A DNA stretch of 64,000 nucleotides from Bacillota bacterium (GCA_023421675.1 JAEZTC010000009.1:52408-116407); one strand, 5' to 3'; positions 2,419 through 25,217 are shown, counted from the first letter of the stretch. The notes: generated from the sequence alone by a model not told the origin. Made by a program: numbers and translations.

Positions 2419-2434
2419 TCAGCACTTATTCAAC

Positions 2435-4529: not shown

Positions 4530-4925
4530 TTGAAGGACATTATGATAGATGAATTCCAATATATGGTACAGGAATTGCTTGTAAGGAATAAGAGCATTGT
4601 GGACTCAATTACTAAATATCAGGATTCAAATGCCCGTGTCAACCGTGCAATTGTCAAAGCCGTAACACAATGCGGATGTATTAAGATTCATGCAAAGAAA
4701 CAGAACATACCTGAGAACGGGGATTTCGACGAAATAAAGACCTCAATGAAAACCCATTTAGAAGGTAAACTTTGTGATAATTGCAGGGATCAGATTGAAA
4801 AAGACATAGGAAGAAATGTTTTTTATCTGGCATCTATATGCAATGCATTAGATTTAAACCTTTACGACATTATGATAAAAGAATACGACAGGCTGAAAAT
4901 GCTCGGAAAATATAATTTAAGATAA
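4530..4925 (+). CDS. hypothetical cytoplasmic protein with CGC...CDNC cysteine pairs
   Basis: 131-aa ORF with a TTG start 9 nt after GGGAG, followed by a strong terminator. I do not recognise a family with confidence. Confidence 0.55.
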   Translation: MKDIMIDEFQYMVQELLVRNKSIVDSITKYQDSNARVNRAIVKAVTQCGCIKIHAKKQNIPENGDFDEIKTSMKTHLEGKLCDNCRDQIEKDIGRNVFYLASICNALDLNLYDIMIKEYDRLKMLGKYNLR

Positions 4926-6054: not shown

Positions 6055-6218
6055 AGAATGCAACCTCCTGAAAAACAGGAATAATTATATATAAGTCTGG
6101 TCCTTACCTCCCGGTTTTAAACATAATAATAGTGATCCTATTTATATATACGCTGCATTATGTGTAAGACATGCTTATTTCCAATGAACACTTAAGACTA
6201 CTGGTTGACTCCAGAGTA

Positions 6219-7858: not shown

Positions 7859-9784
7859 TCATTTGCCGAAGAGCTTGAAGAGAACAAGAACAAACATGGC
7901 ATGTGACCATGTAAGAGGTATTACCCATTGGGGCTTTCCATCATCTTTTCCCACCTGTTCAGGCAAAAGTCCGATATCTGTACAACCCTTTACAGCCCAA
8001 TCAAGGTATTCAAAAGCTTTTTGAACGTTACCATTTTCAGCATGATAGAGTGCAGCCCAAAGAGTAGTTAAAATCCAGGGATTACCGCCAATGTAATTAT
8101 CATATTCATATCTTTTTAACCCGCCAATTCCAGGATTAGACAACACCTTTTCAACAAGTTCAACTGTACTTTTAACTCTATAGTCGTCGGTGTACAGAAT
8201 GTCAAAGGGCACACTGATACCAAGCAGGCTTATATCGACAAGCCAATCCTCAAGAGTGACATCTCGCTTATAACCCTTGGGATTTACCTTTACAAAGGTT
8301 GTATTATCACTGTTTTCACGGCCCCAGGGATTAAGCTTTACCCTTATGCTTCTGATAAATCTCTTTTCATTATCCTTCCAGAAGTACTTAATGATTGCTG
8401 CTTCGATATTTTCAGCTGTTGCTATCCACTTTCCAATATAGTCTATGTCCTTGCCAAGAATGCCTGCTATTTCAACACATGCTTTTATTCCTGCCAATAC
8501 TGCGGCCGAAGAGTAAAAATGTTCACCGAATCTTTCTTCCCACAAGTCGAAGCTTTGCAAAGGAAGCCCAGTTTCTTCATCTATAAAATCAGTCATAAAA
8601 TTGACTGCCTTCGCAGCTGTTTCCCACATTTCAGACAGGAAGCTCCTGTCCCCTGTATTTTTGTAATGCCTTAGAATTCCCCATACCAGTGTTCCAGTTT
8701 CATCTATCTGCAAGCCCCAGGAAGGCCCGAGGTTTCCGTCCATGTGATAACGCTGTTCCCACGACCCATCATCATTTTGAACCGAAGCTGCCCATCTGTA
8801 AAATTTATCAACAGACTCATGTAAGCCGCTTTTATCCATTGCTTCAGTTATAAATGCAGCATCCCTGCCCCAGCAATATGCATATCTGCCGCATTTGGTA
8901 AATTCTTCATCTATTTCAGGTGCAGCCAGCAATCCACCGGTTTTTTTGTCGGACATAAGTTTGAAAACCAGGAGAGATCGCCTGTACAGGTCATCCAAAT
9001 CGCTTCTGCCTGTATTAATCACAACTGACTTTTTAAGAAAAGCGTGCCAGTAATCTATAGTTTTCTTTAGTTCTATATCGCTATCCAGCTGTTTAGACTT
9101 TTTCGCTGCATTTTTTACATCCTTGAGAGTATGTGCGGCGGACAGATATAAGTTAAAAATCTTTTTTTCTCCAGGCAGAAATGATCCCAGTTTCCAGAGA
9201 ACAGACCCATCCGGCATCATACCTATGCTGTCAAAGCCATTCAATACAGTACTGCTTGCAGCATCGAAAGCATTATTGCCGAGCTGGAACTGGCAAGCCT
9301 CCCTATCAGCACAAATGGATATATAGTAATTATGTCTGTAATGAATAAGCGCATCGGTATCAAAATCAAACAAAGTACCGGCTAGAGCAGGATTTGTAGT
9401 AATAATGCCCGAATAAGCAGCAAAACCAAGGTTCAATTCATTATTACATATATTTTCAATGTTATAGCTTCTGACAAGAATATCTGATTCAGGGAGTACA
9501 AAATCGGTTTGCGTAATTTTAATACCTCTGTCACGAGCTTCAAATATAGTCTCCACAATATTTGTATCACAAATATACCTTTGAGAATGCTTAAAAATAT
9601 CCCTATCCATCCATAAGGTGCTATTCTCAAATTCGGTGAAATAAATACCCGTAAAAAAATTGTCCATATGCTGCGGATAATCTATATTTGGCCAGAATAG
9701 CCTTACAAGCTCACCCTTATCGCCGAGACAGCCCAGCATGCTGGAATTCCCGACTATTGCACTATTAAAATATGTCTTAGCCAT
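7859..9784 (-). CDS. glycoside hydrolase family 15 (glucoamylase/glucodextranase/trehalase-like), cytoplasmic
   Basis: 641 aa with no signal peptide. It has an (alpha/alpha)6-type C-terminal half with DLWEERFGEHFYSSA (the GH15 WEE catalytic motif) and YCWGRDAAF. Confidence 0.8.
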   Translation of the reverse strand: MAKTYFNSAIVGNSSMLGCLGDKGELVRLFWPNIDYPQHMDNFFTGIYFTEFENSTLWMDRDIFKHSQRYICDTNIVETIFEARDRGIKITQTDFVLPESDILVRSYNIENICNNELNLGFAAYSGIITTNPALAGTLFDFDTDALIHYRHNYYISICADREACQFQLGNNAFDAASSTVLNGFDSIGMMPDGSVLWKLGSFLPGEKKIFNLYLSAAHTLKDVKNAAKKSKQLDSDIELKKTIDYWHAFLKKSVVINTGRSDLDDLYRRSLLVFKLMSDKKTGGLLAAPEIDEEFTKCGRYAYCWGRDAAFITEAMDKSGLHESVDKFYRWAASVQNDDGSWEQRYHMDGNLGPSWGLQIDETGTLVWGILRHYKNTGDRSFLSEMWETAAKAVNFMTDFIDEETGLPLQSFDLWEERFGEHFYSSAAVLAGIKACVEIAGILGKDIDYIGKWIATAENIEAAIIKYFWKDNEKRFIRSIRVKLNPWGRENSDNTTFVKVNPKGYKRDVTLEDWLVDISLLGISVPFDILYTDDYRVKSTVELVEKVLSNPGIGGLKRYEYDNYIGGNPWILTTLWAALYHAENGNVQKAFEYLDWAVKGCTDIGLLPEQVGKDDGKPQWVIPLTWSHAMFVLVLFKLFGK

Positions 9785-10002
9785 TTAGCCTCCATAATTG
9801 AACATCGAGTTTAATAATTAACATTCACCAAAGCCTTTATTTTTACACTAAATTATAACACATAAATATCTTATCCAGCTTGCTGAAAGTTCTGGTCGTA
9901 ATAAATAATTTGCTGCTTTAAGTATAAAATAATAATGTTTAAGAAACAATTTAACTGGAAAAGTGTGTATATATTGCGTTATGAAAACTTCGGAGGTTAT
10001 TG

Positions 10003-11247
10003 ATGAACTCTGTTATATATTGGACAACTCAAGTAATACAAGTATTGATTTTTATCGCTGGATGCTACTTTTTAGGTGTATCGGTTTTCGGATGGATAAA
10101 GTTTAAGGAAGAGCCGGCAGAAAAATATAAGCCGGTTAAAAGATTCGCTTTAGTAGTGGCAGCCCATAATGAGGAAAAGGTAATAGGCCATGTGGTAGAC
10201 AGCCTCTCAAGGCAAAACTATCCCAAGGAGCTTTATGACATATTCGTAATAGCTGACAACTGTACCGATAAGACAGCCGATATTGCCAAAGCTCATGGAG
10301 CCATTGTTTATAAAAGAGTAAATCTTGAGGAAAGAGGCAAGGGTTTTGCTCTTGAATGGATGTTCAGTAAAATATATCAGATGGAAGACAAATACGATGT
10401 TGTAAGCGTTTTTGATGCAGACAACCTTGTTTCTGCAAACTTTCTTCTTGAGATGAACAAGCAGCTTTGCAAAGGACATAAGGTGGTACAGGGTTACATT
10501 GACAGTAAAAATCCCTTTGATTCATGGATTACCTGCTCTTATTCCATAGCTTTCTGGATGTCCAACAGAGTATTCCAGCTTGCAAGATTTTATCTCGGAT
10601 TAAGCTGTGGCCTTTGCGGGACAGGCTTTTGCATCGATCTTGAGGTGCTCAAGAAAATCGGATGGGGTGCAACTTGTCTTACAGAAGATCTTGAATTTAC
10701 AATGAAGCTTGCAATGAACGACATGAAGGTTGGATGGGCTCATAACGCGGTTGTCTATGATGAAAAGCCTTTGACACTCGCACAATCATGGAGGCAAAGA
10801 AAACGCTGGATGCAGGGTCATGCTGATTGTGCAAGCAGATTTTTAAAACCGCTTTTTAAGAAAGCTTTCAAGGATGCCAATTTAACTGCTTTTGATTGTG
10901 CTATTTATCTGTTTCAGCCTATAAGGTTTATATTTATAGGGCTTATAACAATTATGCTGTGGATTCAGACAGTTTTCCCCCAATCCCCGTTTTATACCCT
11001 AAAATATGTTTTCCCAACGGCAGTATGGTATGTATTTGTAACTTTGCAATTCTTTTATGGGCCTTTGATTGTAATGGCCGAGAAGAAATTTAGACTCAAA
11101 ATAGTGTTGGGCTTTTTGATATATCCATTTTACTGCCTGACCTGGGTACCTATAACCATACAGGGCTTTATGAGCAAAAACAATAAAAATTGGAGCCATA
11201 CATCTCACACTAGGGAAATCAGTATAAACGACCTTGAAAAGGCCTGA
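10003..11247 (+). CDS. membrane-embedded family-2 glycosyltransferase (processive-type; FDADN and QRKRWMQGH motifs), paralog A
   Basis: An N-terminal TM helix, a GT-A core (VAAHNEEKVIG...IADNCTDKT...FDADN...TEDLEF...QRKRWMQGH), then C-terminal TM helices. The ATG at 10003 lies 6 nt after GGAGG. It is a paralog of 18886..20139. Confidence 0.85.
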   Translation: MNSVIYWTTQVIQVLIFIAGCYFLGVSVFGWIKFKEEPAEKYKPVKRFALVVAAHNEEKVIGHVVDSLSRQNYPKELYDIFVIADNCTDKTADIAKAHGAIVYKRVNLEERGKGFALEWMFSKIYQMEDKYDVVSVFDADNLVSANFLLEMNKQLCKGHKVVQGYIDSKNPFDSWITCSYSIAFWMSNRVFQLARFYLGLSCGLCGTGFCIDLEVLKKIGWGATCLTEDLEFTMKLAMNDMKVGWAHNAVVYDEKPLTLAQSWRQRKRWMQGHADCASRFLKPLFKKAFKDANLTAFDCAIYLFQPIRFIFIGLITIMLWIQTVFPQSPFYTLKYVFPTAVWYVFVTLQFFYGPLIVMAEKKFRLKIVLGFLIYPFYCLTWVPITIQGFMSKNNKNWSHTSHTREISINDLEKA

Positions 11248-11260
11248 AAGACTTTACTAA

Positions 11261-13111
11261 TTATTTTACCCTAAAATAATTACCTGAGATAATTTCGTCT
11301 GCTTTTTCAAGTCCCTCAATTGCAGTCTGTTTTTCCTTTTCTGAAGCAGCATCTCCTATAAACGTTCCATTTGCAAGGACCGCATAGTTCTTGGTTGTCT
11401 TAAGCAGAATCCGGCCCATTGCAGTATTACTGAATTTATTTTCATCAATACCCATCAAATAAGCAACTGTTGGCATTATATCTACCTGTCCTCCGATAAC
11501 AGGGCTTATTTCACCCTGATAACTCTTTTGATAAATTATAAGAGGCACCCGTTTATTTTCTTCCTGCCACCAGCTTTCAGAGGGTTCGATCTTTTCTATT
11601 TCATCCTGATAATACTTATGCACACCGCAATGGTCACCGTAAACTACAACTACAGTGTTATCCAACATATGATCTTGATCCAGCTTTTCAATGAACTTGC
11701 CTATTTGTTCATCAGTATAATGTACGCTTTGTAAATAGCCTCCCATTTTAGTTGTATCAAAATCTTCTTTTAGTTTTAACTTCCTGTATTTCTGCGGAAT
11801 ATCAAACGGACCATGGCTTGTAAGAGTAACCATAAATGTATAAAAAGGTTGTTTTTGCGCAGCAATTATAGGTTCAACCTGCTTGAAATATGAGCCGTCA
11901 CTAAGCCCTAGACCTATAAGCTCATCCTGTTTAAAGCGTTTTGCATCAATACATTCCTGAAAACCTATTGATTTCAAGGCCGGCATCCAGTTCCAGTAAG
12001 CACCTTTGTCCGGGTGTATTGCAAGTGTGCTGTAACCCTTGGACTGCATCATTAAAGGCAATGAGTTATAGCTATTGTTGGGGAAACGGAAAAATGTGCT
12101 TCCCCTTCTAACAGGATAAACAGAGGTATTTGTCATTAAGTCCGCATCTGAGCTGGTTCCAAGATTAACCTGTTCATAAATATTCGGAATGTATATGCTG
12201 TTTCCAAGCAGCTTGTTTAAGTTAGGAGTTATTTCCTGCCCGTCAATACTTTTACCTATAACAAAGTTTTCCAGTGATTCCACCTGGAGTATAAGCAGGT
12301 TCTTCCCTTTGAATATGCCTTTATACTTGTTGTCGGGGAGATTTTCCTTTTTATCATTGAACCAGTTTTCCAGTTCTTGTCGGCTTGATGTATTGAGTGA
12401 TACCGTCCTAGAATCCTTAAAGTAGGTATAAACATCATATATATGATATCCGATAGGCGAAAGATCTGTTATTGTCTGCGCAGGTGTCCAGCAAGTTTTG
12501 AACAAAAACTGAGGTCCTGTCTTCTGTATATCAAGTTTGTAATGGGCATAGGTAAGTGTCAATACAGGCACAATAATAAAAATCAAAAAATACGGAATGT
12601 TTCTTTTAGTATTCTTGTAAGGTTTTTTTATAAAGAAAGCACCTATGAAAATAACGAGCGAATCAAATATTACAAAAATGTCGAGCGGCCTGGCCATTGA
12701 AAGAATGCTATCACCGAGGTTATCCAGGTTTACAAGCTCACTTAGCTGATGCATTGAAAGAAAAGCCCCGAAACCTCTGAAGTGCCAGATGTCGAATATA
12801 AGTATAATGGAAAAAACAAGGTTAAAAATCGCAAGATACCACATATGCTTTCTGCCTTTTAAAAGCAGACAGAAAGAAAGAGCAATCAGTGCAAAACACA
12901 TGTAAATTATCAGACCGGGCAAAAACTTTGTTATGCTTCCGGCACTTGAAATCTTAAAGCTTGCATTTACAACAAGTGATATAGACAATATGGATTTAAG
13001 AATTATAGCAACAAATGTGTAATGAAATAAAAAATCCTTTAACTGAGATTTAGACCTTATTTTTAAGCCGTTAAAAACTTTTTTTACAAATTCTAATACT
13101 TGCTGTTTCAT
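11261..13111 (-). CDS. LtaS/MdoB-family (sulfatase-fold) polytopic membrane protein, paralog 1 of 4
   Basis: 616 aa with about five N-terminal hydrophobic helices followed by an ectodomain carrying LQVESLENF, GTSSDADLMTNTSVYP and VVYGDHCGVH. This matches the architecture and metal-site motifs of lipoteichoic acid synthase / phosphoglycerol transferase enzymes. Confidence 0.85.
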   Translation of the reverse strand: MKQQVLEFVKKVFNGLKIRSKSQLKDFLFHYTFVAIILKSILSISLVVNASFKISSAGSITKFLPGLIIYMCFALIALSFCLLLKGRKHMWYLAIFNLVFSIILIFDIWHFRGFGAFLSMHQLSELVNLDNLGDSILSMARPLDIFVIFDSLVIFIGAFFIKKPYKNTKRNIPYFLIFIIVPVLTLTYAHYKLDIQKTGPQFLFKTCWTPAQTITDLSPIGYHIYDVYTYFKDSRTVSLNTSSRQELENWFNDKKENLPDNKYKGIFKGKNLLILQVESLENFVIGKSIDGQEITPNLNKLLGNSIYIPNIYEQVNLGTSSDADLMTNTSVYPVRRGSTFFRFPNNSYNSLPLMMQSKGYSTLAIHPDKGAYWNWMPALKSIGFQECIDAKRFKQDELIGLGLSDGSYFKQVEPIIAAQKQPFYTFMVTLTSHGPFDIPQKYRKLKLKEDFDTTKMGGYLQSVHYTDEQIGKFIEKLDQDHMLDNTVVVVYGDHCGVHKYYQDEIEKIEPSESWWQEENKRVPLIIYQKSYQGEISPVIGGQVDIMPTVAYLMGIDENKFSNTAMGRILLKTTKNYAVLANGTFIGDAASEKEKQTAIEGLEKADEIISGNYFRVK

Positions 13112-13154
13112 ACTTACCCCTATTTCAACTATCTTTTATTTAAACTTATTCGTA

Positions 13155-15005
13155 TCATTTATATTCTTTACTGAAATAATCCGATGTTACTATTTTATCA
13201 GCTATATCTATACCTTTCAAAGCCTTATTTTTATTTTCCGCATCTGTGGTTGTGCCCACATAGGCGTAATCATTCAGTACAGCAAAATCCTTATTGGTTT
13301 TTACAAGAATTCTACCCATAGCAGTATTCTTGAAGCTATTCTCATCTATACCCATAAGATAGGCTATTGTAGGCATTATATCTATTTGTCCGCCAGTTAT
13401 GGTAAGTTTTTCGGCAGCAGCATTCTTCTGATAAATTATCAGTGGTACGCGTTTATTCTTTTCAAGCCACCAGTTTTCCTGAGGCTTAATATTGTTCAGT
13501 TCATCCTGGTAATATTTATGAACTCCACAATGGTCACCATATATAACTACTACAGTATTATCAAGTAAATGCTTATTATCAAGCTCATTAAGAAATTTCC
13601 CAATCTGCTCATCAGTATAATGTGCACTCTGAAAATACCCGCCAAGCCTGTTAGAATCCAGGCCTTTATCAAGCTTCATTGTTCTTAATCTTTGCGGAAG
13701 ATTAAACGGGCTATGGCTTGTAAGTGTAACTGCGAAGGTATAAAACGGCTGCTTTTGTGACTCAATTACAGGAACCAGCTGTCTGAAATATGAAGCATCA
13801 CTAAGTCCAAGACCTATCATATCATCCTGAACAAAGTATTTTGAGTCCATTGTTTTCTGGAAGCCTATTGATTTTAAGGACGGAGCCCAGTTCCAGTAAC
13901 CACCCTTATCCGAGTGTATCGCAGTAGTAGTGTAGCCCATTGACTGCATAAGCTTTGGCAGGGAATTGTATTTGTTGTTAGGGTACCTGAAAAAGGTACT
14001 TCCCTTTCGGATGGGATAAACAGACGTATTTGTCATAAGGTCTGCATCCGAGCTGCAGCCGGTATTCACCTGCTCATATATGTTTGAAAAATAAAGGCTG
14101 TTTTTTAATAACCTATTTAAGTTTGGAGTTATTTCCTGACCTTCAACGCTTTGATTTATAACAAAGTTCTCCAGTGACTCTATTTGCAGGATTAAAAGGT
14201 TTTTCCCCTTAAACATGCTCTTATACTTATTGTCGGGGAGATTTTCCTGTTTGTCTTTATACCACTGTGTTATTTCTTTCTTGTCTTTTGAGCTCAGCGA
14301 AGTATTCATATCCTCAAAAAAGAAGGAGTATGCATCTACAAAGTGATAGCCTAAGGGTGAGAGATTGGTTATTGTCTGAGGTGGATTCCAATACTTGTAA
14401 AACAGTCTCTGAGGTCCCGCTTGTTTTACATCAAGCTCATAATATGCAAGTAACAATGTAAGTATTGGTACTATAAGAAAAATAAAAAAGTACGGAACAT
14501 TTCTTTCCGCTTTTTTATAAGGCTTTTTAAAAAATAGAAAAGCAATGAAAATACCTAAAGCATCAATTATAAACAAAAAGTCCCATTGACGTGACATTGA
14601 AAAAATACTGTCACCCAGATTATCCAGGTTAACCAGCTGTCCGAGCTGATGCACCGAAAGGAATGACGCAAATCCTCTGTAGTACCAGATATCAAAAATA
14701 AGAAGTATTGAAAAGACAAGGTTTAATATTACAAGATACCACAGCCTTTTCCTACCTTTAAAAAGAAGAGCAAACGACATGACTATTAGAACAAAGGTAC
14801 TGTATACTACAAGTCCAATAAAAAGCACAAGAAAATTTATCTTACCGGAGGAATTGTTTACTATCAGTACAGTGGTAAGTATGGACTTCAGCAGTATAGC
14901 CAAAAAGGTATAGTGAAAAAGGTAATCTCTTACCTGATTACCCGATTTAGTTTTAAAGTAACTGAAAAAGCGCTTGGTATTAACCAGAAGTAATTCCCTA
15001 TTCAT
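13155..15005 (-). CDS. LtaS/MdoB-family polytopic membrane protein, paralog 2 of 4
   Basis: 616 aa with the same architecture. Motifs are LQIESLENF, GCSSDADLMTNTSVYP and VIYGDHCGVH. It is most similar to paralog 3. Confidence 0.85.
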   Translation of the reverse strand: MNRELLLVNTKRFFSYFKTKSGNQVRDYLFHYTFLAILLKSILTTVLIVNNSSGKINFLVLFIGLVVYSTFVLIVMSFALLFKGRKRLWYLVILNLVFSILLIFDIWYYRGFASFLSVHQLGQLVNLDNLGDSIFSMSRQWDFLFIIDALGIFIAFLFFKKPYKKAERNVPYFFIFLIVPILTLLLAYYELDVKQAGPQRLFYKYWNPPQTITNLSPLGYHFVDAYSFFFEDMNTSLSSKDKKEITQWYKDKQENLPDNKYKSMFKGKNLLILQIESLENFVINQSVEGQEITPNLNRLLKNSLYFSNIYEQVNTGCSSDADLMTNTSVYPIRKGSTFFRYPNNKYNSLPKLMQSMGYTTTAIHSDKGGYWNWAPSLKSIGFQKTMDSKYFVQDDMIGLGLSDASYFRQLVPVIESQKQPFYTFAVTLTSHSPFNLPQRLRTMKLDKGLDSNRLGGYFQSAHYTDEQIGKFLNELDNKHLLDNTVVVIYGDHCGVHKYYQDELNNIKPQENWWLEKNKRVPLIIYQKNAAAEKLTITGGQIDIMPTIAYLMGIDENSFKNTAMGRILVKTNKDFAVLNDYAYVGTTTDAENKNKALKGIDIADKIVTSDYFSKEYK

Positions 15006-15057
15006 CCTGCACCCTCTTTAACCGCAAATTTATATTAATATACAATTTATAATTTTA

Positions 15058-16926
15058 CTACTTTTTCTTATTTGAATATGCCGGGTAAAAATAATTGGAT
15101 GATATTATTTTATCAGCAAAATCAATACCTTTCAAAGCCCAGTTTTTAGTTTTTTCATCAGTAGTAGATCCCACATAGGTACGATTGTTTAGAACTGCAA
15201 AATCCCTGTTTGTATTAACCAGGATTCTACCCATTGCGGTATCTTTAAAGTTATTTTTATCAATCCCCATAAGGTATGATATTGTTGGCATAATGTCTAT
15301 CTGCCCGCCTGTTACCGTTAGTTTTTCTGCAGGCATATTCTTCTGATAAATAATGAGCGGTACACATCTATTCTTCTCCAGCCACCAGTTTTCCTGCGGC
15401 TTTATATTGTATAGCTCATCTTGGTAATACTTGTGAACACCGCAATGATCGCCATAAATAACTACAACGGTATTGTCAAGTAAGTGGTTTTGATCAAGCT
15501 CATCAAGAAACTTTCCGATTTTTTCATCTGTATAGTGAAAACTTTGGAAATAACCTCCGAGCTTTGTAGAATCAAACTCTTTATCAAGGTTCAGAGATCT
15601 ATACTTTTGTGGAATATTAAATGGTCCGTGACTGCTCAGTGTTACTATGAAATTAAAAAATGGCTGCTTCTGTGAAACAATCTTAGGTACCAATTGCCTG
15701 AAATATGAGCCGTCACTAAGTCCAAGGCCTATTTCCTCATCATGTACAAAGCTCTTTGAATCTATGCACTTCTGGAAACCTATTGATTTTAATGCAGGCA
15801 TCCAATTCCAATAGCCTCCCTTATCGGAATGTATTGCCGTAGTACTATAACCCATTGACTGCATGAGTTTGGGCAGGGAATTATATGTATTGTTTGGATA
15901 CCTAAAAAATGTACTTCCCTTTCTTATTGGATACACAGAAGTGTTTATCATTAAATCTGCATCCGAGCTGGTTCCAAGGTTTACCTGCTCATAAATATTA
16001 GGGAAATAGATGCTGTTCTTTAATATCCTGTTCAGGGTTGGGGTTATTTCCTCTCCATTAATACTTTGGTTTATGACAAAGTTTTCAAGAGATTCTACCT
16101 GTAAAACTAAAAGGTTTTTACCCTTGAACATGCCTTTATACTTATTATCGGGGAGGTCCTCCTGTTTATCCCTATACCATTGTTCAATCTCTTTCTTTTC
16201 TTGAGAACTGATAGATGAAGCGCTTAAATCCTTAAAATAGGAGTAAACATCAAAAAAGTGGTATCCGATTGGTGACAAATCCGTTATAGTTTGTGCAGGC
16301 GTCCAAAAAGTATCAAACAATCTCTGGGGTCCGACTTTTTTTATATCCATTTCATAATGCGCAATTGATAAAAGTACTATCGGTACCATAAGAAAGATAA
16401 AGAAATATGGTACATTTCTTTTAATATTTCTATATGGCTTCTTTACAAATATACTTGCAATAAGAATTCCTATCGCATCAATAACAAAAAGAAAGTCCCA
16501 CTGTCGTGACATTGAAAAAATACTATCCCCAAGATTGTCCAGGTTGACAAGCTGCCCAAGCTGCTGAACCGAGAGAAATGCTCCAAAGCCCCTGTAATAC
16601 CATATATCAAAAACTAGCAGTACTGAAAATACAAGATTTAATATTACAAGATACCACAGACGTTTTCTCCCTTTAAAAAGAAGAGAAAAAGACATGGTAA
16701 TTAATACAAAGGTACTGTATAACACAAATCCTGCAAGCAACACTAGTAGGTTTAAATTTTTAATATCTGAAGAATCATTTACTATCAATGCTGTTGAAAG
16801 AATTGATTTTATCAATATTGATAAATAAGTATAATGAAATAAATAATCTCTGACCTGATCACCTGATTTAATTTTAAAGTAACTGAAAAAACGTTTTATA
16901 TTAGCTTGCAGTAATACCCGATTCAT
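15058..16926 (-). CDS. LtaS/MdoB-family polytopic membrane protein, paralog 3 of 4
   Basis: 622 aa. Motifs are LQVESLENF, GTSSDADLMINTSVYP and VIYGDHCGVH. It shares the C-terminal tail NYFYPAYSNKKK with paralog 4. Confidence 0.85.
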   Translation of the reverse strand: MNRVLLQANIKRFFSYFKIKSGDQVRDYLFHYTYLSILIKSILSTALIVNDSSDIKNLNLLVLLAGFVLYSTFVLITMSFSLLFKGRKRLWYLVILNLVFSVLLVFDIWYYRGFGAFLSVQQLGQLVNLDNLGDSIFSMSRQWDFLFVIDAIGILIASIFVKKPYRNIKRNVPYFFIFLMVPIVLLSIAHYEMDIKKVGPQRLFDTFWTPAQTITDLSPIGYHFFDVYSYFKDLSASSISSQEKKEIEQWYRDKQEDLPDNKYKGMFKGKNLLVLQVESLENFVINQSINGEEITPTLNRILKNSIYFPNIYEQVNLGTSSDADLMINTSVYPIRKGSTFFRYPNNTYNSLPKLMQSMGYSTTAIHSDKGGYWNWMPALKSIGFQKCIDSKSFVHDEEIGLGLSDGSYFRQLVPKIVSQKQPFFNFIVTLSSHGPFNIPQKYRSLNLDKEFDSTKLGGYFQSFHYTDEKIGKFLDELDQNHLLDNTVVVIYGDHCGVHKYYQDELYNIKPQENWWLEKNRCVPLIIYQKNMPAEKLTVTGGQIDIMPTISYLMGIDKNNFKDTAMGRILVNTNRDFAVLNNRTYVGSTTDEKTKNWALKGIDFADKIISSNYFYPAYSNKKK

Positions 16927-16975
16927 TCTACCCGTACCCCTTATACCTCAAACCAATTCAATAACAGTAGTTCGC

Positions 16976-18844
16976 TTATTTTTTGTTTGCATATGCCGGA
17001 TAGAAATAATTTGATGAAATTATTTTATCTGCAATATCTATTCCTTTTAAAGCTTTATTTTTATCATTGCTGTCTTTATCAGAACCTATAAAACTGTAGT
17101 CATTGAGGACTGCAAAGTCTTTGTTTGTCTTTACAAGTATCCTTCCCATTGCAGTATCCTTGAACTTGTTCTCATCTATTCCCATAAGGTATGCCACCGT
17201 AGGCATTATGTCTATCTGACCGCCTGTTACCGATAGCTTTTCACCTTTTGTATTTTTCTGATAAATTATAAGTGGAATTCTTTTATTGTTATCCAGCCAC
17301 CAGTTTTCCTGAGGATGAATACTGTACAATTCATCCTGATAATACTTATGAACACCGCAGTGATCACCAAAGAATACCACTACCGAATTGTCCAATATGC
17401 CATCAGCATCAAGCATTGATAAGAATTCTCCTATTTGCCTGTCAGTATAGTTAAAACTCTGGAAATATCCGCCGAGCTTAGTTTTATCCATACTTTCATC
17501 CAGCTTCAGCTGCCTGTACTGCTGTGGAATGTTAAATGGCCCATGGCTTGATAAGGTTACAATAAAATTATAAAATGGCTGTTTTTCGGACTTAATTACA
17601 GGTTCAAGCTGCTTAAAATACGATCCGTCACTTAAACCCAAACCTATTTGCTCATTCTGATTAAAGAATTTTGCATCAATACACTTTTGGAAACCGATAT
17701 TTTTTAATGACATCATCCAGTTCCAATAAGCACCCTTGTCTGAGTGTATTGCAATGGTATTATAACCTTCTGCCTGCATCAGCTTGGGCATTGAGTTGTA
17801 TGAATTTGCCGGAAAGCGGAAAAATGTACTGCCGCGTCTTACAGGATAAACTGAAGTATTGATCATCAAATCCGAATCCGAGCTTGTTCCATTGTTTACC
17901 TGTTCATATATATTCGGGAAATAAATGCTGTTCGGCAGAAGCTTATTAAGGTTTGGCGTTATTTCCTGTCCGTTTATCTTCTGGCCTATAACAAAGTTCT
18001 CCAATGATTCAACCTGAACCATAATGAGGTTTTTGCCTTTAAACATGCCTTTATATTTATTGTCAGGCAGGCTTTCATTCTTGCTTTGGTACCAGTCGTT
18101 GATTTCTTTTTCCTCAGATTTAGTCAGAGTTTTAGTACTGTTTTCACTTAAATATTCATACGCATCAAAAAGATGATATCCTAAAGGTGAAAGATTAAAT
18201 ATTGTTTCTCTGGGAGTCCAGCATACTTTGAACAATCTGAATTTGGGGTATCTGTCATGAATATCCACCCTATAATGTGTGTAGGAGATAACACCTACTG
18301 AAAAAGCAAGGATTATAAAGAAGAATAATACGTTTCTTTTGGCATCCCTATACTGGCCTTTTACAAAAAACGCTGTTATAAAAATGACTACAGCATCTGC
18401 GACAAGCACAAAATCCATCGGCCTTACCATGGAGAATATGCTGTCGCCAAGATTATCAAGGTTTACAAGCTGGTTTAGCTGGTGGACAGATAAAAAGGAA
18501 TTGTAGCCCCTGTAATACCATAAATCGAAAATCATAAGGATAGAAACTACAACGTTAAAAAGCACCAGATACCAAAATCTCTTCCTTCCCTTGAAAAGAA
18601 GGGCAAAAGACATAGGCCCCAGAATAAAGCAGGCATATACAAGATTTGAAGAAATACTTGTTGATGCCCTTTTAATATCTATAGAAGTAAAGTTGGCACT
18701 TGCTATGATACCAAGAAGTGCCAATGATTTTAAAAGTACTATAATAAATGTATATGCAAACAAATAATCTGTAAGTTGATCTATTGTCTTTTCTTTCAAA
18801 TAACTTAAAGACTTCTTACAATGGATAGCCAGTTCTTTCCTCAT
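16976..18844 (-). CDS. LtaS/MdoB-family polytopic membrane protein, paralog 4 of 4
   Basis: 622 aa. Motifs are VQVESLENF, GTSSDSDLMINTSVYP and VFFGDHCGVH. Confidence 0.85.
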   Translation of the reverse strand: MRKELAIHCKKSLSYLKEKTIDQLTDYLFAYTFIIVLLKSLALLGIIASANFTSIDIKRASTSISSNLVYACFILGPMSFALLFKGRKRFWYLVLFNVVVSILMIFDLWYYRGYNSFLSVHQLNQLVNLDNLGDSIFSMVRPMDFVLVADAVVIFITAFFVKGQYRDAKRNVLFFFIILAFSVGVISYTHYRVDIHDRYPKFRLFKVCWTPRETIFNLSPLGYHLFDAYEYLSENSTKTLTKSEEKEINDWYQSKNESLPDNKYKGMFKGKNLIMVQVESLENFVIGQKINGQEITPNLNKLLPNSIYFPNIYEQVNNGTSSDSDLMINTSVYPVRRGSTFFRFPANSYNSMPKLMQAEGYNTIAIHSDKGAYWNWMMSLKNIGFQKCIDAKFFNQNEQIGLGLSDGSYFKQLEPVIKSEKQPFYNFIVTLSSHGPFNIPQQYRQLKLDESMDKTKLGGYFQSFNYTDRQIGEFLSMLDADGILDNSVVVFFGDHCGVHKYYQDELYSIHPQENWWLDNNKRIPLIIYQKNTKGEKLSVTGGQIDIMPTVAYLMGIDENKFKDTAMGRILVKTNKDFAVLNDYSFIGSDKDSNDKNKALKGIDIADKIISSNYFYPAYANKK

Positions 18845-18885
18845 GCGTTCCCTTTCATAACAAAGGAAAAATGCCGTAGCCTTGA

Positions 18886-20139
18886 TCAGCTGACTTTTTC
18901 CAATCCCTCTATATCAGATATATCTATTGCGCGGGTATGTATTGTGTGTAACCATTCACGCTTATTCCTGTTAAAAAAGCCTTGAATGCTTATTGGTATC
19001 CAGGTAAGCCCATAAATCGGGAATAGAATAAAATATTTTATGACCTTCAATTTAAATTTACCTTCAGCTGTTATGAAGATCAGACTGAAGAGTAAGAGTG
19101 CTGCTCCTGAAACCAACGATGAAATAATTGTAAATGCAGTGATATTGTTTAAAATAATCATCATTATAATGGAGAATAATCCTACAACACCATTTGCGAT
19201 GGTTATAAACGGCTGCATAAGGTAAAGACCACAGTCAAAAGCCCTGAAATCCTTATCCTTAAAAGCCTTAACAAAAAGACTTTTTAAATATCTTCCTGCA
19301 CAGTCACAATGTCCCTGCATCCATCTGGTACGCTGTCTCCATGATTGCTTCAATTTCAAAGGCTTTTCATCATACACCTTTGCATTGTGCGACCAGGAAA
19401 CCCTCATGTTTTTTAAAACAAGTCTTAATGAAAACTCAAGATCTTCTGTCAGACATGTAGCTTCCCAACCGATTTCCTTCAATACATCCATGGACATTAC
19501 AAATCCTGTTCCGCCAAGAGCGCAGTTAAGTCCGAGATAATGACGAGGAAGCTGGAAGATCCTGTTGCTTATCCAGTAAGTCATTGAGTAATTTCCTGAA
19601 ATCCATGAATCGCCAGGATTCTTGCTGTCGAGATAGCCCTGGATAACCTTGTTTCCAAGGCATAATTCCTTGTTCATCTCCATAAGAAAATTCGATGAGG
19701 CAAGGTTATCTGCGTCGAAAATGCACACTGCATCATATTTAGTATCCATTTTGAATAATTTTTTAAATGCCCATTCAAGTGAAAAACCTTTTCCTTTTTT
19801 TGTTTCATCAAATCTTTCAAGTGTTTTCGCACCATTTTCCTGTGCTATCTTCGCAGTTTTATCTGAGCAATTATCTGCAATTACAAATACATCATACATG
19901 TTCCTTGGATAATTGAGTTTGTTTAAGTTCTTTACAATGCTTCCTACAACCTTCTCTTCATTATGAGCTGCTACCAGCACTGCAAATCTATTTACAGGTT
20001 TGAAACTTTCTGCAGGTAATTCCTTTCTTCTGAACCATCCAAAAATACCTATTATAAAGTAATAAACAAGTATTACCGCTAATATAACCTGTGCAACTAA
20101 TAACACAATCCAAAAAATATTACCTAAATCCGCTAACAT
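18886..20139 (-). CDS. membrane-embedded family-2 glycosyltransferase (FDADN, QRTRWMQGH), paralog B; first gene of the LtaS-like array operon
   Basis: 417 aa, collinear with 10003..11247 along its whole length (VAAHNEEKVVG...IADNCSDKT...FDADN...TEDLEF...QRTRWMQGH). It lies 41 nt upstream of LtaS-like paralog 4 on the same strand. Confidence 0.85.
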   Translation of the reverse strand: MLADLGNIFWIVLLVAQVILAVILVYYFIIGIFGWFRRKELPAESFKPVNRFAVLVAAHNEEKVVGSIVKNLNKLNYPRNMYDVFVIADNCSDKTAKIAQENGAKTLERFDETKKGKGFSLEWAFKKLFKMDTKYDAVCIFDADNLASSNFLMEMNKELCLGNKVIQGYLDSKNPGDSWISGNYSMTYWISNRIFQLPRHYLGLNCALGGTGFVMSMDVLKEIGWEATCLTEDLEFSLRLVLKNMRVSWSHNAKVYDEKPLKLKQSWRQRTRWMQGHCDCAGRYLKSLFVKAFKDKDFRAFDCGLYLMQPFITIANGVVGLFSIIMMIILNNITAFTIISSLVSGAALLLFSLIFITAEGKFKLKVIKYFILFPIYGLTWIPISIQGFFNRNKREWLHTIHTRAIDISDIEGLEKVS

Positions 20140-20312
20140 AATTATCTATAACCCCTTATTAAAAATAACATTCTAATAAAAATTACTCTATATTAATATT
20201 ATTGTCAACACATGTTTTACATAATAAATTGCTGATTACCTTATATATTTACTGTTAAAATGAGTATAAGCGTTAATTTGTTAACATATTGACGATAATA
20301 AAAAAAAATCGT

Positions 20313-20349
20313 AAAAAAAAGGAAACAACGTAAAATAAACATCGTTTCC
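20313..20349 (-). terminator. rho-independent terminator of the ctsR-clpC operon
   Basis: Minus-strand RNA GGAAACGAUG-uuuauuuua-CGUUGUUUCC forms 10 bp (including 2 G-U pairs that work only on this strand) followed by UUUUUUUU. It lies 45 nt after the clpC stop. Confidence 0.8.
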
Positions 20350-20393
20350 TTAAATTATTTACAATTTGGTAATATTTTTTTAGAATCCCTTCG

Positions 20394-22826
20394 TTACTTT
20401 TTGTTTAGTACAAGCTGGTCGTCCTTGACATCAATAACCACCTCATCGCCTGATGTTACCTTTCCTTCAAGCATTTCTTCCGCAAGACGGTCCTCAATCA
20501 TGCTTTGTATGGATCTTCTAAGAGGTCTTGCACCATAAACCTGATCATAGCCCTTTTTTGCGAGGAAAGATTTTACCTCTTCAGTAAGCTCAAGTGTAAT
20601 CCCATTCTGCTTAAGCCTGTTGATGAGGCCTCCAAGCATTATTCCTACAATATTCCTGAGATGCTCTTCTTCAAGCGGATGGAATACAATAACTTCATCC
20701 ACTCTATTAAGGAATTCAGGCCTGAAAGTCTTTTTCAATTCCCCCATGACATTATTCTTCATTTCCTGGTAGTTACGTGCCTTCTCATCCCCGCCTACAG
20801 AAAAGCCCATTCGTTTGGGCTCTGTAATGAGCCTTGCACCAACATTTGATGTCATAATTATTACAGCATTCCTGAAGTCTACAGTTCTTCCCTGAGAGTC
20901 TGTAAGCCTTCCGTCTTCAAGAATTTGAAGCAGTATATTAAATACATCAGGGTGCGCCTTCTCTATTTCATCAAACAATACAACCGAATATGGCTTTCTT
21001 CTTACCTTCTCGGTAAGCTGTCCGCCTTCTTCAAAGCCAACATAGCCTGGAGGTGCTCCTATGAGCCTTGCCACAGTATGCTTTTCCATGTATTCGGACA
21101 TATCAATTCTTATAATTGAATTTTCATCCCCAAACAAAGCTTCCGCTAAAGCTTTGCTCAGCTCGGTTTTACCAACACCGGTAGGTCCCAGGAAAATGAA
21201 TGACCCAACAGGTCTCTTGGGGTCTTTAAGTCCGACACGGCCTCTTCTTATTGCTTTGGAAACTGCTTTTGCCGCTTCATCCTGTCCTACAACCCTAAGA
21301 TGCAATACATCTTCCATCTTTCTAAGTCTTTCAGATTCTTCTTCAGCAAGCTTTTTAACAGGAATTCCAGTCCAGCTTGCAACAATTTCTGCAATATCAT
21401 CTTCCGTTACGGTATCGGTACTGGTCTGATGCTTCTGCTGCCAATTATTCTTGGCCTTTTCAAGCTCTGCCTTAAGCTTTTGTTCTTCATCCCTTATACG
21501 GGCTGCCTTTTCAAATTCCTGACATCTTATTGAGTCTTCCTTTTCCTTTGCAAGCTTCTCAACCTTGCTTTCAAGCTCCTTCAAATCAGGCGGAGCTGTG
21601 AAGGATTTGAGCCTTACTCTGGAAGCCGCTTCATCAATAAGGTCAATTGCCTTATCGGGGAGGAATCTGTCAGTAATATACCTATCTGAGTATTTTACAG
21701 CTGCATCAAGTGCATCGTCGGTAATTTTTACCCTGTGATGGGCTTCATACTTATCTCTTACACCCTTTAATATCTCATATGCCTCTTCCTTTGAAGGTTC
21801 ACCTACCGTTATAGGCTGAAATCTTCTTTCGAGCGCAGCATCCTTTTCAACATGCTTTCTGTATTCATCAAGGGTAGTTGCACCGATTACCTGTATCTCA
21901 CCCCTTGCAAGCAGTGGTTTTAAAATATTGCTGGCATCGATGGCACCCTCTGCGGCACCTGCACCGATTATTGTATGCATTTCATCTATAAACAGGATTA
22001 CATTTCCGGCTTTCCTTATCTCTTCGACAGCCTTTTTGAGCCTTTCTTCAAATTCGCCTCTATATTTGGCCCCGGCGACCATCGATGAAAGGTCAAGCGT
22101 TACAACCCTTTTTTCCTTTAATATTTCAGGAATATTACCTTCAACAATCTTTTGCGCAAGGCCTTCGGCAATAGCAGTCTTACCAACACCGGGTTCTCCG
22201 ATGAGGCAGGGATTGTTTTTTGTTCTTCTTGAAAGTATTTGAATAACCCTTTCAATTTCCTTATCACGGCCTATTACAGGGTCAAATTTTCCTTCCTTAG
22301 CCATTTCTGTAAGGTCACGCCCGAACTGGTTAAGTGTCGGTGTATTTGAATAATTTGCGCTGCTTCTTGGCTCACCAGATGACCCTGGTGATTCTTCATT
22401 CAGGATTTTCACTATTTCATTCAAAAGCTTGGAAGGGTCAACCCCTAAATCCATAAGGATCCTTACAGCAACACTTTCTCCCTCCTTCATTATTCCTAGA
22501 AGAAGGTGTTCTGTACCTATATAGTTATGTCCCAGTCTTCTTGCCTCCCTAAAGGACAATTCAAGTACCCTCTTTGTCCTGGGTGTAAACCCAAGAGGCT
22601 GCTGGCCGGTTTCTTCACCTCTGCCTATAAGCTCTTCTATTTCCTTTAAAACCTTATCTTCAACAACACCTTGCCCCTGCAAAACTCTTGCAGCAACACC
22701 CGTACCTTCTCTTACGAGCCCGAGCAGGATATGTTCAGTTCCTACGTAATTATGGCCAAGCTGCATAGCACTTTCCTGGGAATATGCTATTGCTTTTTCT
22801 GCCTTTTCTGTAAAACGTCCGTACAT
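20394..22826 (-). CDS. clpC: ATP-dependent Clp protease ATP-binding subunit ClpC
   Basis: Two Clp_N repeats, two AAA+ modules (GEPGVGKTA; GPTGVGKTE) and a UVR-like linker. The start is taken at [13 protein letters not shown] (ATG 8 nt after AAGGAG); the track start at 22835 is 3 codons upstream. Confidence 0.95.
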
Positions 22827-22850
22827 ATTTATCACTCCTTTTCAAGTGCA

Positions 22851-25149: not shown

Positions 25150-25162
25150 CACCTTTTCTGAT

Positions 25163-25217
25163 TTTGACTTTCCTTGACCTTCAAAAATATTATACTGCAT
25201 TTCATATTTAATTTCAA
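25163..25217 (-). promoter_or_regulatory. ctsR operon promoter (TTGAAA-17-TATAAT) with a CtsR operator directly downstream
   Basis: On the minus strand, TTGAAA = 25217..25212, TATAAT = 25194..25189, and the operator GGTCAAGGAAAGTCAAA = 25179..25163. The operator matches the heptad direct-repeat consensus (A/G)GTCAAA-NAN-(A/G)GTCAAA. Confidence 0.85.

Follow-up and report, generated by a model that had tools for sequence, protein, structure and literature searches.

A tandem array of four LtaS-family genes beside hyaluronan synthase-like GT2 genes in a clostridial genome, most likely an expanded version of a known glycerol-phosphate surface-polymer pathway

The closest described counterparts of the locus presented here are the lipoteichoic acid (LTA) synthase systems of Firmicutes, represented by LtaS of S. 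aureus, LtaP and LtaS of Listeria, and LtaS, YfnI, YqgS and YvgJ of B. subtilis. [quoted passage not shown] In the osmoregulated periplasmic glucan (OPG) system, the phosphoglycerol transferase OpgB acts together with OpgH, a GT2 of about 850 amino acids, and the periplasmic protein OpgG. The GT2/GT21 glycolipid synthases MgdA (Sll1377) of cyanobacteria, MG517 of Mycoplasma and Pgt of rhizobia glycosylate diacylglycerol (DAG). GacH, an enzyme of the LtaS superfamily, takes sn-glycerol-1-phosphate from phosphatidylglycerol and transfers it onto a glycan whose synthesis depends on other enzymes encoded at its locus. The LtaS paralogs of B. subtilis and Listeria have divided roles (PMC3089915), and MG517, a member of GT2, is processive on DAG and MGDG and attaches to the membrane through an amphipathic helix instead of TM helices (PMC6506492).

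The window, that is, the whole stretch of 64,000 nucleotides analysed (Bacillota bacterium, GCA_023421675.1 JAEZTC010000009.1:52408-116407), appears to derive from an uncultured, Acetivibrionales-like member of the Clostridia in which SigI/RsgI are present. The block of interest is located in a conserved interval between ctsR-mcsA-mcsB-clpC and radA-disA, flanked by clpC (20394..22835, minus strand; mcsB, mcsA and ctsR further upstream) and radA (6219..7580, minus strand; disA at 4975-6063). All seven ORFs reported in the first-pass annotation were confirmed at the stated positions, as were the family assignments, the motifs, the spacing and the paralogy. Five are co-directional on the minus strand: GT2a (18886..20139), encoding an integral-membrane inverting GT2 of 417 amino acids, followed by the LtaS-family paralogs Lta4 (16976..18844; 622 amino acids), Lta3 (15058..16926; 622), Lta2 (13155..15005; 616, with the motif GCSSDAD) and Lta1 (11261..13111; 616). 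GT2b, a membrane GT2 of 414 or 415 amino acids on the plus strand (10003..11247), converges on Lta1; its ORF comprises 10000-11247, the likelier start being the ATG at 10003, which is preceded by a GGAGG site. A GH15 gene (7859..9784, minus strand; 641 amino acids) follows towards radA. The intergenic gaps from GT2b to GT2a are 13, 43, 52, 49 and 41 nt.

GT2a had been described as the head of a transcription unit, and this is plausible. A terminator-like hairpin with a 13-bp stem and a T-run (20319..20351, minus strand) lies just after clpC and parts the clpC unit from GT2a, a promoter-like element (TTGACA-17-TAATTT, a consensus match only) followed by an AAGGGG ribosome-binding site (RBS) is located upstream of GT2a (20181..20209, minus strand), and each gene of the unit is preceded by an RBS. 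No CtsR operator was found at the GT2a promoter region and no internal terminator between GT2a and Lta1, so that GT2a-Lta4-Lta3-Lta2-Lta1 probably forms an operon.

All four paralogs contain the Sulfatase domain (PF00884, E-values of 1e-34 to 1e-37), LtaS_N (PF27449) in the precomputed Pfam assignments, and five N-terminal hydrophobic segments, which, together with the presence of all quoted motifs, bears out the domain plan initially proposed. The best-scoring model is the NCBIfam LTA synthase NF053595, whose cut-off of 970 bits is not reached (315-327 bits); the paralogs are thus not equivalogs in the sense of this model. Their best sequence matches in the PDB are BsLtaS (E-value 1e-58), LmLtaS, SaLtaS and LtaP. 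An AF2 model of the Lta3 ectodomain (pLDDT 86) superimposed in Foldseek on the LtaS and LtaP structures of Bs, Lm and Sa (2w8d, 4uoo, 2w5q, 4uop) with TM-scores of 0.78-0.81, at about 25-28% identity over the structural alignment, and more weakly on GacH (0.62-0.65). The paralogs are accordingly true LtaS-family proteins, and they share with the Firmicutes systems the domain plan, the metal ligands, most residues of the glycerophosphate (GroP) site and the multiplicity per genome, the last in the form of one tandem array. No annotation source assigned a specific function to the genes of the block, in agreement with its original designation as possibly uncharacterised.

The array originated by serial duplication and is not an assembly artefact, both as first suggested: the block is identical in independent ENA and Logan assemblies, and dS between the copies, which are 60-77% identical in pairwise comparisons (Lta2 and Lta3 being the closest pair, 77%), is saturated. 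With dN/dS values of 0.07-0.09, the copies are under purifying selection. At the same locus of close relatives, the slot beside GT2a contains 0, 1, 3 or 4 LtaS genes or, alternatively, a glycosyltransferase of the GT-C class, and all copies of the array are monophyletic with those of the 1-, 3- and 4-copy relatives; the array was therefore built by tandem duplication in situ, the copy number rising from one to three to four. Lta3 is the youngest copy, duplicated from Lta2 and missing in the 3-copy relative; orthologs in L163 are 77% (Lta4), 92% (Lta2) and 90% (Lta1) identical, and Lta1 is closest to the single LtaS copy of L165.

Most probably, the block represents the known glycerol-phosphate surface-polymer pathway in an enlarged and slightly atypical form, and not a new kind of system. 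To the more specific proposal that it represents a lineage-specific, amplified module of the lipoteichoic acid type built into the clpC-radA interval, we attach an even degree of belief. The model that best accounts for the sequences combines a lipid-linked acceptor made by the GT2s with glycerophosphate transfer of the LtaS type. The single unit headed by GT2a would start after the clpC terminator, with GT2b transcribed convergently. GT2a and GT2b would glycosylate a membrane lipid, most likely DAG, on the cytoplasmic face, and the resulting beta-mono- and dihexosyl-DAG would supply a membrane-anchored acceptor; MgdA and MG517 offer precedents for such a reaction by GT2 enzymes. At the outer face, the Mn-dependent ectodomains of the Lta paralogs would act on phosphatidylglycerol, cleaving it to leave glycerophosphate covalently bound to the Ser, from which sn-glycerol-1-phosphate would be handed on to the glycolipid acceptor and the growing chain. 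The four paralogs may each specialise in priming, in elongation or in particular growth conditions, like those of B. subtilis and Listeria.

Both GT2s contain Glyco_tranf_2_3 and Glyco_trans_2_3 domains (PF13641, PF13632) above cut-off, with a GT-A domain between TM and interface helices; PF13506 (Glyco_transf_21), a model touched by many homologs, matches GT2b marginally (23.0 bits, cut-off 21.7) and GT2a not at all. With the inverting GT-A glycolipid synthases MgdA, MG517 and Pgt they share the D, DxD and (Q/R)xxRW motifs, and, as indirect evidence, a 60%-identical homolog of GT2a (P0082) is labelled 'Beta-monoglucosyldiacylglycerol synthase' by one source. The wide distribution of the family, mostly as a single copy in housekeeping neighbourhoods, also favours a lipid glycosyltransferase. 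Unlike MG517, they carry TM helices, about four, including an N-terminal one. The motifs of GT2a are D89, D142xD144, T231-E-D233, Q269RTRW273 and W396xHTxHTR403; D89, D142-A-D144, T231-E-D233 and Q269-R-T-R-W273 are invariant in an alignment of 49 sequences, as is the C-terminal W-x-H-T-x-H-T-R motif in the family alignment, which we take to resemble the WGTR gating loop of HAS/BcsA-type synthases.

These features also suit a different product. GT2a and/or GT2b could be processive synthases similar to hyaluronan synthase (HAS), BcsA or NodC that export a beta-linked glycan or lipoglycan, and the Lta paralogs could decorate it with glycerophosphate at different positions in the manner of GacH or OpgB, no poly-GroP chain being formed. 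We regard this possibility, which is close to the second suggestion of the first-pass annotation, as unlikely. In Foldseek, the GT2 model matched the hyaluronan synthases of Cv and Xl (TM-score 0.70, about 420 columns for Cv-HAS) and also BcsA, membrane part included; this ranking covers solved structures only, and to our knowledge no GT2 glycolipid synthase is among them. The best sequence-profile match is likewise HAS1 (E-value 8.5e-9). TED, QxxRW and the WGTR-like motif suit processive synthases equally well, and this, like the proximity to such synthases among solved structures, counts against the lipid-linked acceptor. A synthase that exports its product would need no flippase, and no LtaA-like flippase was found at the locus; several paralogs could mean several sites of decoration. 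The GT2s differ, however, from class I HAS, BcsA, NodC and PgaC/IcaA, whose fold, TED and QxxRW they share, in having fewer TM helices, no accessory subunits such as PgaD/IcaD or BcsB, and housekeeping contexts: the family is widespread in Clostridia, usually as a single copy with hyaluronan/cellulose synthase-like architecture, lies near ftsA/ftsZ, parE/parC or radA, and also occurs in Anaerolineales and the diderm Negativicutes. The equivalog models of PgaC_IcaA (66-68 bits, cut-off 422) and CelA (24-26 bits, cut-off 699) score far below cut-off, and the Lta ectodomain is nearer to LtaS and LtaP than to GacH, an enzyme of a separate clade with 11 TM helices, whereas the array enzymes are of the five-TM LtaS_N type. 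The related analogy to OPGs finds no support either, since the OpgB models PRK12363 and PRK03776 reach only 21-36 bits on the paralogs (cut-offs 572-574) and a search of the window ORFs of 150 or more amino acids revealed nothing resembling OpgG or OpgH.

A CsbB/GtrB identity of the GT2s, raised at the outset in connection with LTA glycosylation, is not supported. Enzymes of this type are GT2s of about 310-340 amino acids with two C-terminal TM helices, make C55-P-sugar and act with a GtrA flippase and a YfhO/GT-C, whereas GT2a and GT2b are longer (415-417 amino acids), contain QxxRW and a TM helix at the N-terminus, and are HAS-like in fold. Polyprenyl-phosphate glycosyltransferase models gave only 20-36 bits, and neither GtrA nor YfhO was found among window ORFs of at least 150 amino acids, a size below which GtrA-type flippases fall.

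GT2a and GT2b, which bracket the array, are indeed paralogs (53% identity), but they fall in two old clades and did not arise by a recent duplication. GT2b is orthologous to the 'housekeeping' GT2 of Clostridia, which is syntenic and usually present as a single copy; its counterparts in the same clpC-radA interval of relatives are 67-94% identical. In one relative, ClpC and RadA are 97% identical to those of the window, but the gene in the position of GT2a shares only 55% identity with it. GT2a has been replaced by a divergent allele between these nearly identical relatives, as happens at surface-antigen loci, a pattern that would suit a decorated glycan.

The genes might also be neighbours by history only, the clpC-radA interval being a permissive site for insertion and amplification; the LtaS copies would then make ordinary LTA on an anchor supplied from elsewhere, and the GT2s would be unrelated housekeeping enzymes. 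We consider this rather improbable. A general system of GT2, LtaS and GH15, as initially envisaged, finds no support: this type of GT2 was found near none of 80 loci of the LtaS subfamily, and 78 of 80 GT2 loci were without LtaS, which was present at the other two. This lack of co-location beyond one small clade, to which the GT2a-LtaS linkage is confined, also counts against the preferred amplified module. The cargo of the interval varies among relatives, examples being GlgX, a GT-C and small ORFs, and in some cases there is none; the array has a lower GC content (0.35-0.365 compared with about 0.39-0.41 in the same-strand flanks) and a flatter GC skew. Against mere neighbourhood, a GT2a-type gene is followed at short distance by a co-directional LtaS gene in five related genomes (the window, L163/L164, L165, L007 and L166). 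In L166, the LtaS belongs to the canonical Thr/Arg type, which differs from that of the array (30% identity), and hence represents an independent association with a GT2a-type gene, so that the order recurs with two LtaS subfamilies. In L168, the LtaS slot is occupied by a GT-C of the PMT_2 type, again an extracytoplasmic membrane enzyme of glycoconjugate synthesis; being lipid-dependent, it fits display of the GT2a product in the outer leaflet, and it also fits an exported, decorated glycan.

The active site of the paralogs was compared with that of SaLtaS, the roles of whose residues are taken from published work on LtaS and GacH. The metal site is intact: equivalents of the Mn2+ ligands E255, D475 and H476 are present in (V/I)ESLENF and (Y/F)GDHCGVH of all four paralogs and near-invariant among 150 family representatives. 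Equivalents of H347, D349, W354 and H416 of the GroP site are also kept in all four; in Lta4, the relevant positions are E279, S321, H367, D369, W374, W376, H434, D494 and H495. The first-pass annotation had left open whether metal and nucleophile residues are retained; the former are, but the nucleophile Thr300 is replaced in all four by the first Ser of SSD (G[TC]S-SD). Ser occupies this position in 96 of the 150 representatives and is therefore a common natural variant and a conservative change, although absent from the characterised enzymes. The second difference from the Firmicutes systems concerns Arg356, whose counterpart in GacH is R589; in both SaLtaS and GacH this residue makes hydrogen bonds to the glycerol hydroxyls of GroP, and it is retained in SaLtaS, BsLtaS, LmLtaS and LmLtaP. 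At this position, each of the four paralogs has Trp (H[PS]DKG[AG]YWNW), which is invariant in an alignment of 43 sequences and also occurs in nearly every one of the 120 closest homologs and in 53 of the 150 representatives, including the closest 50 or so. The combination of Ser and Trp marks a large, uncharacterised clostridial subfamily of LtaS. As the glycerol-binding Arg is replaced, the transferred headgroup could differ, and this subfamily might transfer another phospho-headgroup (e.g. phosphoethanolamine from PE) or mainly hydrolyse phospholipid, giving no glycerophosphate polymer, in line with scores of about one third of the LTA synthase cut-off; this is very unlikely given the conserved metal site and the other, retained residues of the GroP site, the frequency of Ser, the canonical enzyme at the equivalent position of L166, which suggests equivalent roles, and the placement of known phosphoethanolamine transferases in another branch with an EptA-type N-domain, MCR-1 being a far weaker structural match. 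Trp at the Arg356 position, the NF053595 scores and the lack of an LtaA-like flippase at the locus, where the array neighbours a HAS-like GT2 and not a GT28/GT4 synthase, are further points against the LTA-type module.

The GH15 protein was tried as a member of the module and rejected. It matches PF00723 (78 bits, cut-off 22), scores below cut-off with the oligosaccharide amylase model TIGR01577 (565 bits, cut-off 820), contains a WEE motif and has only distant relatives of solved structure. An N-terminal hydrophobic segment was not found and the quoted motif is present, in keeping with its description as a cytoplasmic protein without signal peptide. GH15 enzymes (glucoamylase, trehalase, glucodextranase) have an (alpha/alpha)6 domain and are inverting hydrolases of alpha-glucosides, whereas inverting GT2s make beta-linkages. 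The gene is always located upstream of radA in the same orientation, and in many genomes it lies beside radA and GT2 irrespective of LtaS; it would thus encode a cytoplasmic hydrolase of alpha-glucosides that is linked to radA by synteny and stands outside the module.

The interval between clpC (20394-22835) and radA (6219-7580) of the window, which lies within the order ctsR-mcsA-mcsB-clpC ... radA-disA, contains a block of seven open reading frames whose positions, as described in the first-pass annotation, were confirmed exactly. This gene order is a conserved arrangement in firmicutes. The block comprises four tandem LtaS-family paralogs (Lta1, Lta2, Lta3 and Lta4; 11261-18844, minus strand), two paralogous membrane glycosyltransferases of family GT2 (GT2a, 18886-20139, minus strand, and GT2b, 10000-11247, plus strand, for which ATG 10003 is the likelier start) and a glycoside hydrolase of family GH15 (7859-9784, minus strand). 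The Pfam check proposed at first pass assigned each of the four 616-622-aa proteins a Sulfatase domain (E 1e-34 to 1e-37), the 415-aa and 417-aa GT2 proteins Glyco_tranf_2_3 and Glyco_trans_2_3, and the 641-aa GH15 Glyco_hydro_15. The intergenic gaps from GT2b through the Lta genes to GT2a are 13-52 nt, the shortest being that between Lta1 and the convergent GT2b.

A strong terminator-like hairpin is located 3' of clpC (20351-20319), GT2a is preceded by a promoter-like TTGACA-17-TAATTT element and a ribosome-binding site, each Lta gene has its own ribosome-binding site, and no terminator was found in the 41-52-nt Lta spacers; on these features, GT2a-Lta4-Lta3-Lta2-Lta1 plausibly form a single transcript. 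The promoter calls themselves are weak, since a sigma-70 scan yielded 52 sites against 47 expected from shuffled sequence and thus no excess. Control of GT2a by CtsR was considered and rejected: no CtsR operator lies upstream of the gene, and good matches occur at ctsR and hsp20 instead. Rfam searches of the entire window at the gathering threshold, and of 7.5-20.5 kb at E<=1, returned no riboswitch or other RNA element, and no tRNAs were found in the window. An extended -10 promoter-like site (TTGAAA-17-TAAAAT with TG) occurs twice in identical form on the minus strand, within the 3' end of Lta3 (15107-15135) and within that of Lta2 (13192-13220), each time about 80-100 nt upstream of the start of the next paralog; duplication of the genes may have carried an internal promoter with it, or the sites may be a by-product of conserved coding sequence. 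The GC content of the LtaS/GT2a stretch (12000-20000) is 0.35-0.365 and its GC skew is close to zero (-0.02 to -0.10), compared with 0.39-0.42 and -0.21 to -0.22 in same-strand neighbours, which may reflect membrane-protein composition or foreign origin.

The four Lta paralogs are 60-77% identical, with Lta2 and Lta3 at 77%, and each has five N-terminal hydrophobic segments, for which precomputed Pfam data assign an LtaS_N domain. Their top NCBIfam model is the Gram-positive LTA synthase (315-327 bits, cut-off 970), and among PDB entries their sequences best match LtaS of B. subtilis (E 1e-58), Listeria and S. aureus and LtaP of Listeria. The Lta3 structure predicted by AlphaFold (pLDDT 85.9) superimposes on the LtaS ectodomains of B. 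subtilis, Listeria and S. aureus and on that of LtaP with TM-scores of 0.78-0.81, on GacH with 0.62-0.65, and more weakly on YejM and MCR-1; on this prediction, the paralogs belong structurally to the multi-enzyme LtaS family of Bacilli. In S. aureus LtaS, manganese is coordinated by E255, T300, D475 and H476, and the glycerophosphate site is formed by H347, D349, W354, R356 and H416, with H347 and R356 hydrogen-bonded to the glycerol. All four paralogs retain the equivalent E, H, D, W, H, D and H residues, with Ser at the T300 position and Trp at the R356 position (motif H[PS]DKG[AG]YWNW). They thus depart from a strict LtaS on three counts: they lack the Thr nucleophile, they lack Arg356, and they score a third of what the equivalog cut-off demands. 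Trp at position 356 is invariant in a 43-sequence alignment, and of the 120 closest homologs almost all have it. An exhaustive search gave 1,406 cluster representatives at E<=1e-30; among the best 150 of these, 96 have Ser and 53 Thr at the nucleophile position, and at position 356 there are 66 with Arg, 53 with Trp and 11 with Tyr, Trp dominating among the approximately 50 closest representatives. As Ser outnumbers Thr, it is, judged by these counts, a common natural variant, and Trp at 356 defines by alignment a large, uncharacterised LtaS subfamily with members in Clostridium, Desulfosporosinus, Desulfitobacterium, Haloimpatiens and many MAGs, annotated no more specifically than 'LTA synthase family protein'.

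GT2a and GT2b are 53% identical, and both contain the invariant D, DxD, TED and QxxRW motifs and a C-terminal W-x-H-T-x-H-T-R. In the GT2a model (pLDDT 88.8), a single N-terminal transmembrane helix accompanies a GT-A domain; QRTRW is on an interface helix, and roughly three more helices are membrane-embedded. Relatives were found by genome scan in at least 585 species genomes of Clostridia, Negativicutes and Anaerolineales, and the tree has two old clades. Members of the GT2b clade are single-copy and syntenic: in Acetivibrionales-like genomes they are located in the clpC-radA interval, and in Clostridium sensu stricto their neighbours are ftsA/ftsZ or topoisomerase genes. The GT2a clade also holds the member from locus L003 and members from Anaerolineales. 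Only two weak positions separate the clades, so clade-specific residues provide no evidence that GT2a and GT2b differ in donor or acceptor. The neighbours of other family members (gyrase/topoisomerase, ftsA/ftsZ, PBP, glutamine synthetase, transposase, ATP synthase) are uninformative.

For the joint action of these enzymes, a two-step model is best supported, and we give it an even chance. In the first step, the GT2s would glycosylate a membrane lipid, probably diacylglycerol, to form an anchor; in the second, the LtaS paralogs on the outer face would transfer glycerophosphate from phosphatidylglycerol via a Ser-phospho intermediate, and would share out priming, elongation or growth conditions as do the paralogs of B. 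subtilis and Listeria, which have divided roles (PMC3089915). A lipid acceptor is favoured by the housekeeping distribution of the GT2 family, a 60%-identical homolog bearing the source name 'Beta-monoglucosyldiacylglycerol synthase', marginal Glyco_transf_21 matches in Pfam and the existence of GT2 enzymes that make glycolipids, MG517 among them (PMC6506492). The main rival, which we regard as unlikely, casts the GT2s as true polymer synthases and the LtaS copies as enzymes that decorate a glycan as GacH or OpgB do. The structures closest to the GT2a model are the hyaluronan synthases of Chlorella virus and Xenopus (TM 0.70) and BcsA, and the family profile matches HAS1 (E 8.5e-9); models for PgaC/IcaA, CelA and polyprenyl-phosphate glycosyltransferases score the GT2s far below cut-off. 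The last of these scores also argues against a CsbB/GtrB-type glycosylation set, named at first pass as one example of what would overturn its envelope-polymer proposal, and the locus is no such set. Literature searches yielded no usable characterised clostridial homolog; C. difficile UgtA, UgtB and HexS were discovered by homology to non-GT2 enzymes and are functional analogies only.

That the array is not an assembly artefact, as initially argued, is borne out by the same block on independent public assemblies; moreover, synonymous sites between the copies are saturated and dN/dS is 0.07-0.09, which marks them as old, constrained duplicates. Within the shared frame clpC-GT2a-[..]-GT2b-GH15-radA, the window has four LtaS copies, the related loci L163/L164 three, and L165 and L007 one each. 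The array copies all group in a single clade. In L163, Lta1 has an ortholog of 90%, Lta2 one of 92% and Lta4 one of 77% identity, and Lta3 is an additional copy of Lta2; the serial duplication proposed earlier hence took place in situ. Such arrays are rare, as 78 of 80 metagenomic loci of the Lta subfamily have one copy and the other two have two. Protein identities between the window and L163 are 97% for ClpC, 55% for GT2a, 77% for Lta4, 92% for Lta2, 90% for Lta1, 94% for GT2b, 88% for GH15 and 97% for RadA. The low values for GT2a and Lta4 beside 90-97% for ClpC, RadA, GT2b, Lta1 and Lta2 suggest that GT2a, and partly Lta4, was replaced by a divergent allele. This drop in identity amounts to a sharp mosaic boundary, the suggested replacement lying at the GT2a end of the locus (GT2a at 18886-20139 in the window and 8707-9975 in L163).

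The linkage between GT2 and LtaS is not functional family-wide and recurs within one clade. No member of this GT2 family was found near any of the 80 metagenomic loci of the LtaS subfamily, whose conserved neighbours are housekeeping genes only (no glycolipid synthase, dlt or flippase), and LtaS is absent near 78 of 80 GT2 loci. LtaS comes after a GT2a-type gene in the window and in L163, L165, L007 and L166; the LtaS of L166 is of the canonical Thr/Arg type and only 30% identical, which indicates an independent pairing. That the GT2s and LtaS copies lack any functional coupling is a further rival, and a rather doubtful one. The LtaS slot is empty in L167, L169, L170 and L171. In L168, from a related MAG, a 425-aa PMT_2 membrane glycosyltransferase of the GT-C fold (8422-9699) fills it, between a GT2a-type gene and a convergent GT2b. 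Both types of cargo are extracytoplasmic enzymes acting on membrane-linked glycoconjugates, which fits a GT2 product that ends on the outer leaflet. A bolder reading, in our view also doubtful, is a hypervariable surface-chemistry cassette between two HAS-like GT2s within a synthase-dependent, lipid-anchored glycopolymer pathway undescribed in Clostridia: the GT2s would polymerise and export a beta-glycan without a flippase, and the cargo of zero to four Trp-pocket LtaS enzymes (with non-canonical headgroup or acceptor) or a GT-C enzyme, together with allelic replacement of GT2a, would set strain-specific decoration, e.g. for phage or host evasion. The Trp pocket also raises the possibility that the paralogs transfer a different headgroup, which, with seven of the S. 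aureus active-site residues retained, we consider improbable.

GH15 is predicted to be cytoplasmic, has a WEE motif and resembles the 'oligosaccharide amylase' model (565 bits, under the cut-off of 820); its solved relatives are distant only. The substrates of GH15 enzymes are alpha-glucosides, and inverting GT2 enzymes produce beta-linkages. This stereochemistry, the retention of GH15 beside GT2 and radA in many genomes without LtaS there, and its orientation, always that of radA, speak against the earlier view of GH15 as a partner in the module, and no mechanistic tie to the LtaS array was seen. A link between GH15 and GT2 may exist and is kept as a possibility because the two genes are 4 nt apart in L167. 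In L167 (7001-10199) and L170 (7001-10288), a single GT2a-type gene is followed by a co-directional GH15 gene (gaps of 4 and 90 nt) and then radA; GT2-GH15 adjacency is conserved in both orientations. In L012, GH15 adjoins a putative GlgX-like glycogen debranching enzyme, read as such from its sequence.

In the two-step model, the locus would work like the multi-enzyme LtaS systems of Bacilli, and the analogy with osmoregulated periplasmic glucans put forward at first pass is dropped, the locus not being such a system. New features are the tandem amplification of LtaS, its pairing with an HAS-like GT2 in place of a GT28/GT4 glycolipid synthase with LtaA, the cassette slot with its changing content and the uncharacterised Trp subfamily. 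If true, the model extends a known pathway and reveals no new one, and the most likely function would not surprise a specialist; the locus is real, tidy and testable. LTA synthesis was worked out almost entirely in Bacilli, and to our knowledge it has not been established for most Clostridia which glycosyltransferase forms the anchor or which LtaS type is active. The locus physically joins a large uncharacterised Ser/Trp LtaS subfamily to a very widespread uncharacterised clostridial membrane GT2 family, and the natural series of 0, 1, 3 and 4 LtaS copies with a swapped GT2a allele offers concrete candidate genes for a clostridial LTA anchor pathway. It also illustrates how envelope-polymer loci diversify through tandem amplification.

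Elsewhere in the window, a separate gene cluster of the secondary-cell-wall-polymer type (37324-63043) encodes a fusion of GT4 and polysaccharide pyruvyl-transferase (37324-39582), TagA/WecG (39579-40322), a DUF5693 protein (48474-50225), a Wzy_C/O-antigen-ligase-like protein (50161-51696), a GT4 (52250-53353), a MurJ-like flippase (53901-55478) and a Wzx-like Polysacc_synt protein (59560-61218), as well as DUF4330, two hexapeptide acyltransferases and a Cu_amine_oxidN1 protein. CtsR-operator-like repeats (GGTCAAGGAAAGTCAA[AG] and GGTCAGGGAAAGTCAAA) are located directly upstream of hsp20 (58957-59409), at 59440-59513 on the minus strand. A further such repeat (25163-25179, minus strand) falls within the 5' part of the longest ORF for ctsR (24685-25200), so the true start is probably further downstream; CtsR of relatives has 152 aa. 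Beside disA, on the opposite strand, a 131-aa ORF (4530-4925, plus strand) without a Pfam match has counterparts in the same place and orientation in L165, L167, L168 and L171 and looks like a conserved small protein of no assigned family. SigI/RsgI pairs are typical of cellulolytic clostridia of the Acetivibrio group, and the window (790-4149) encodes a sigma factor resembling SigI (3436-4149), the anti-sigma factor RsgI (2435-3439) and, adjoining them, a protein with Cu_amine_oxidN1 and F5/8-type-C domains (790-2259); these three genes are also found 3' of radA in L165.
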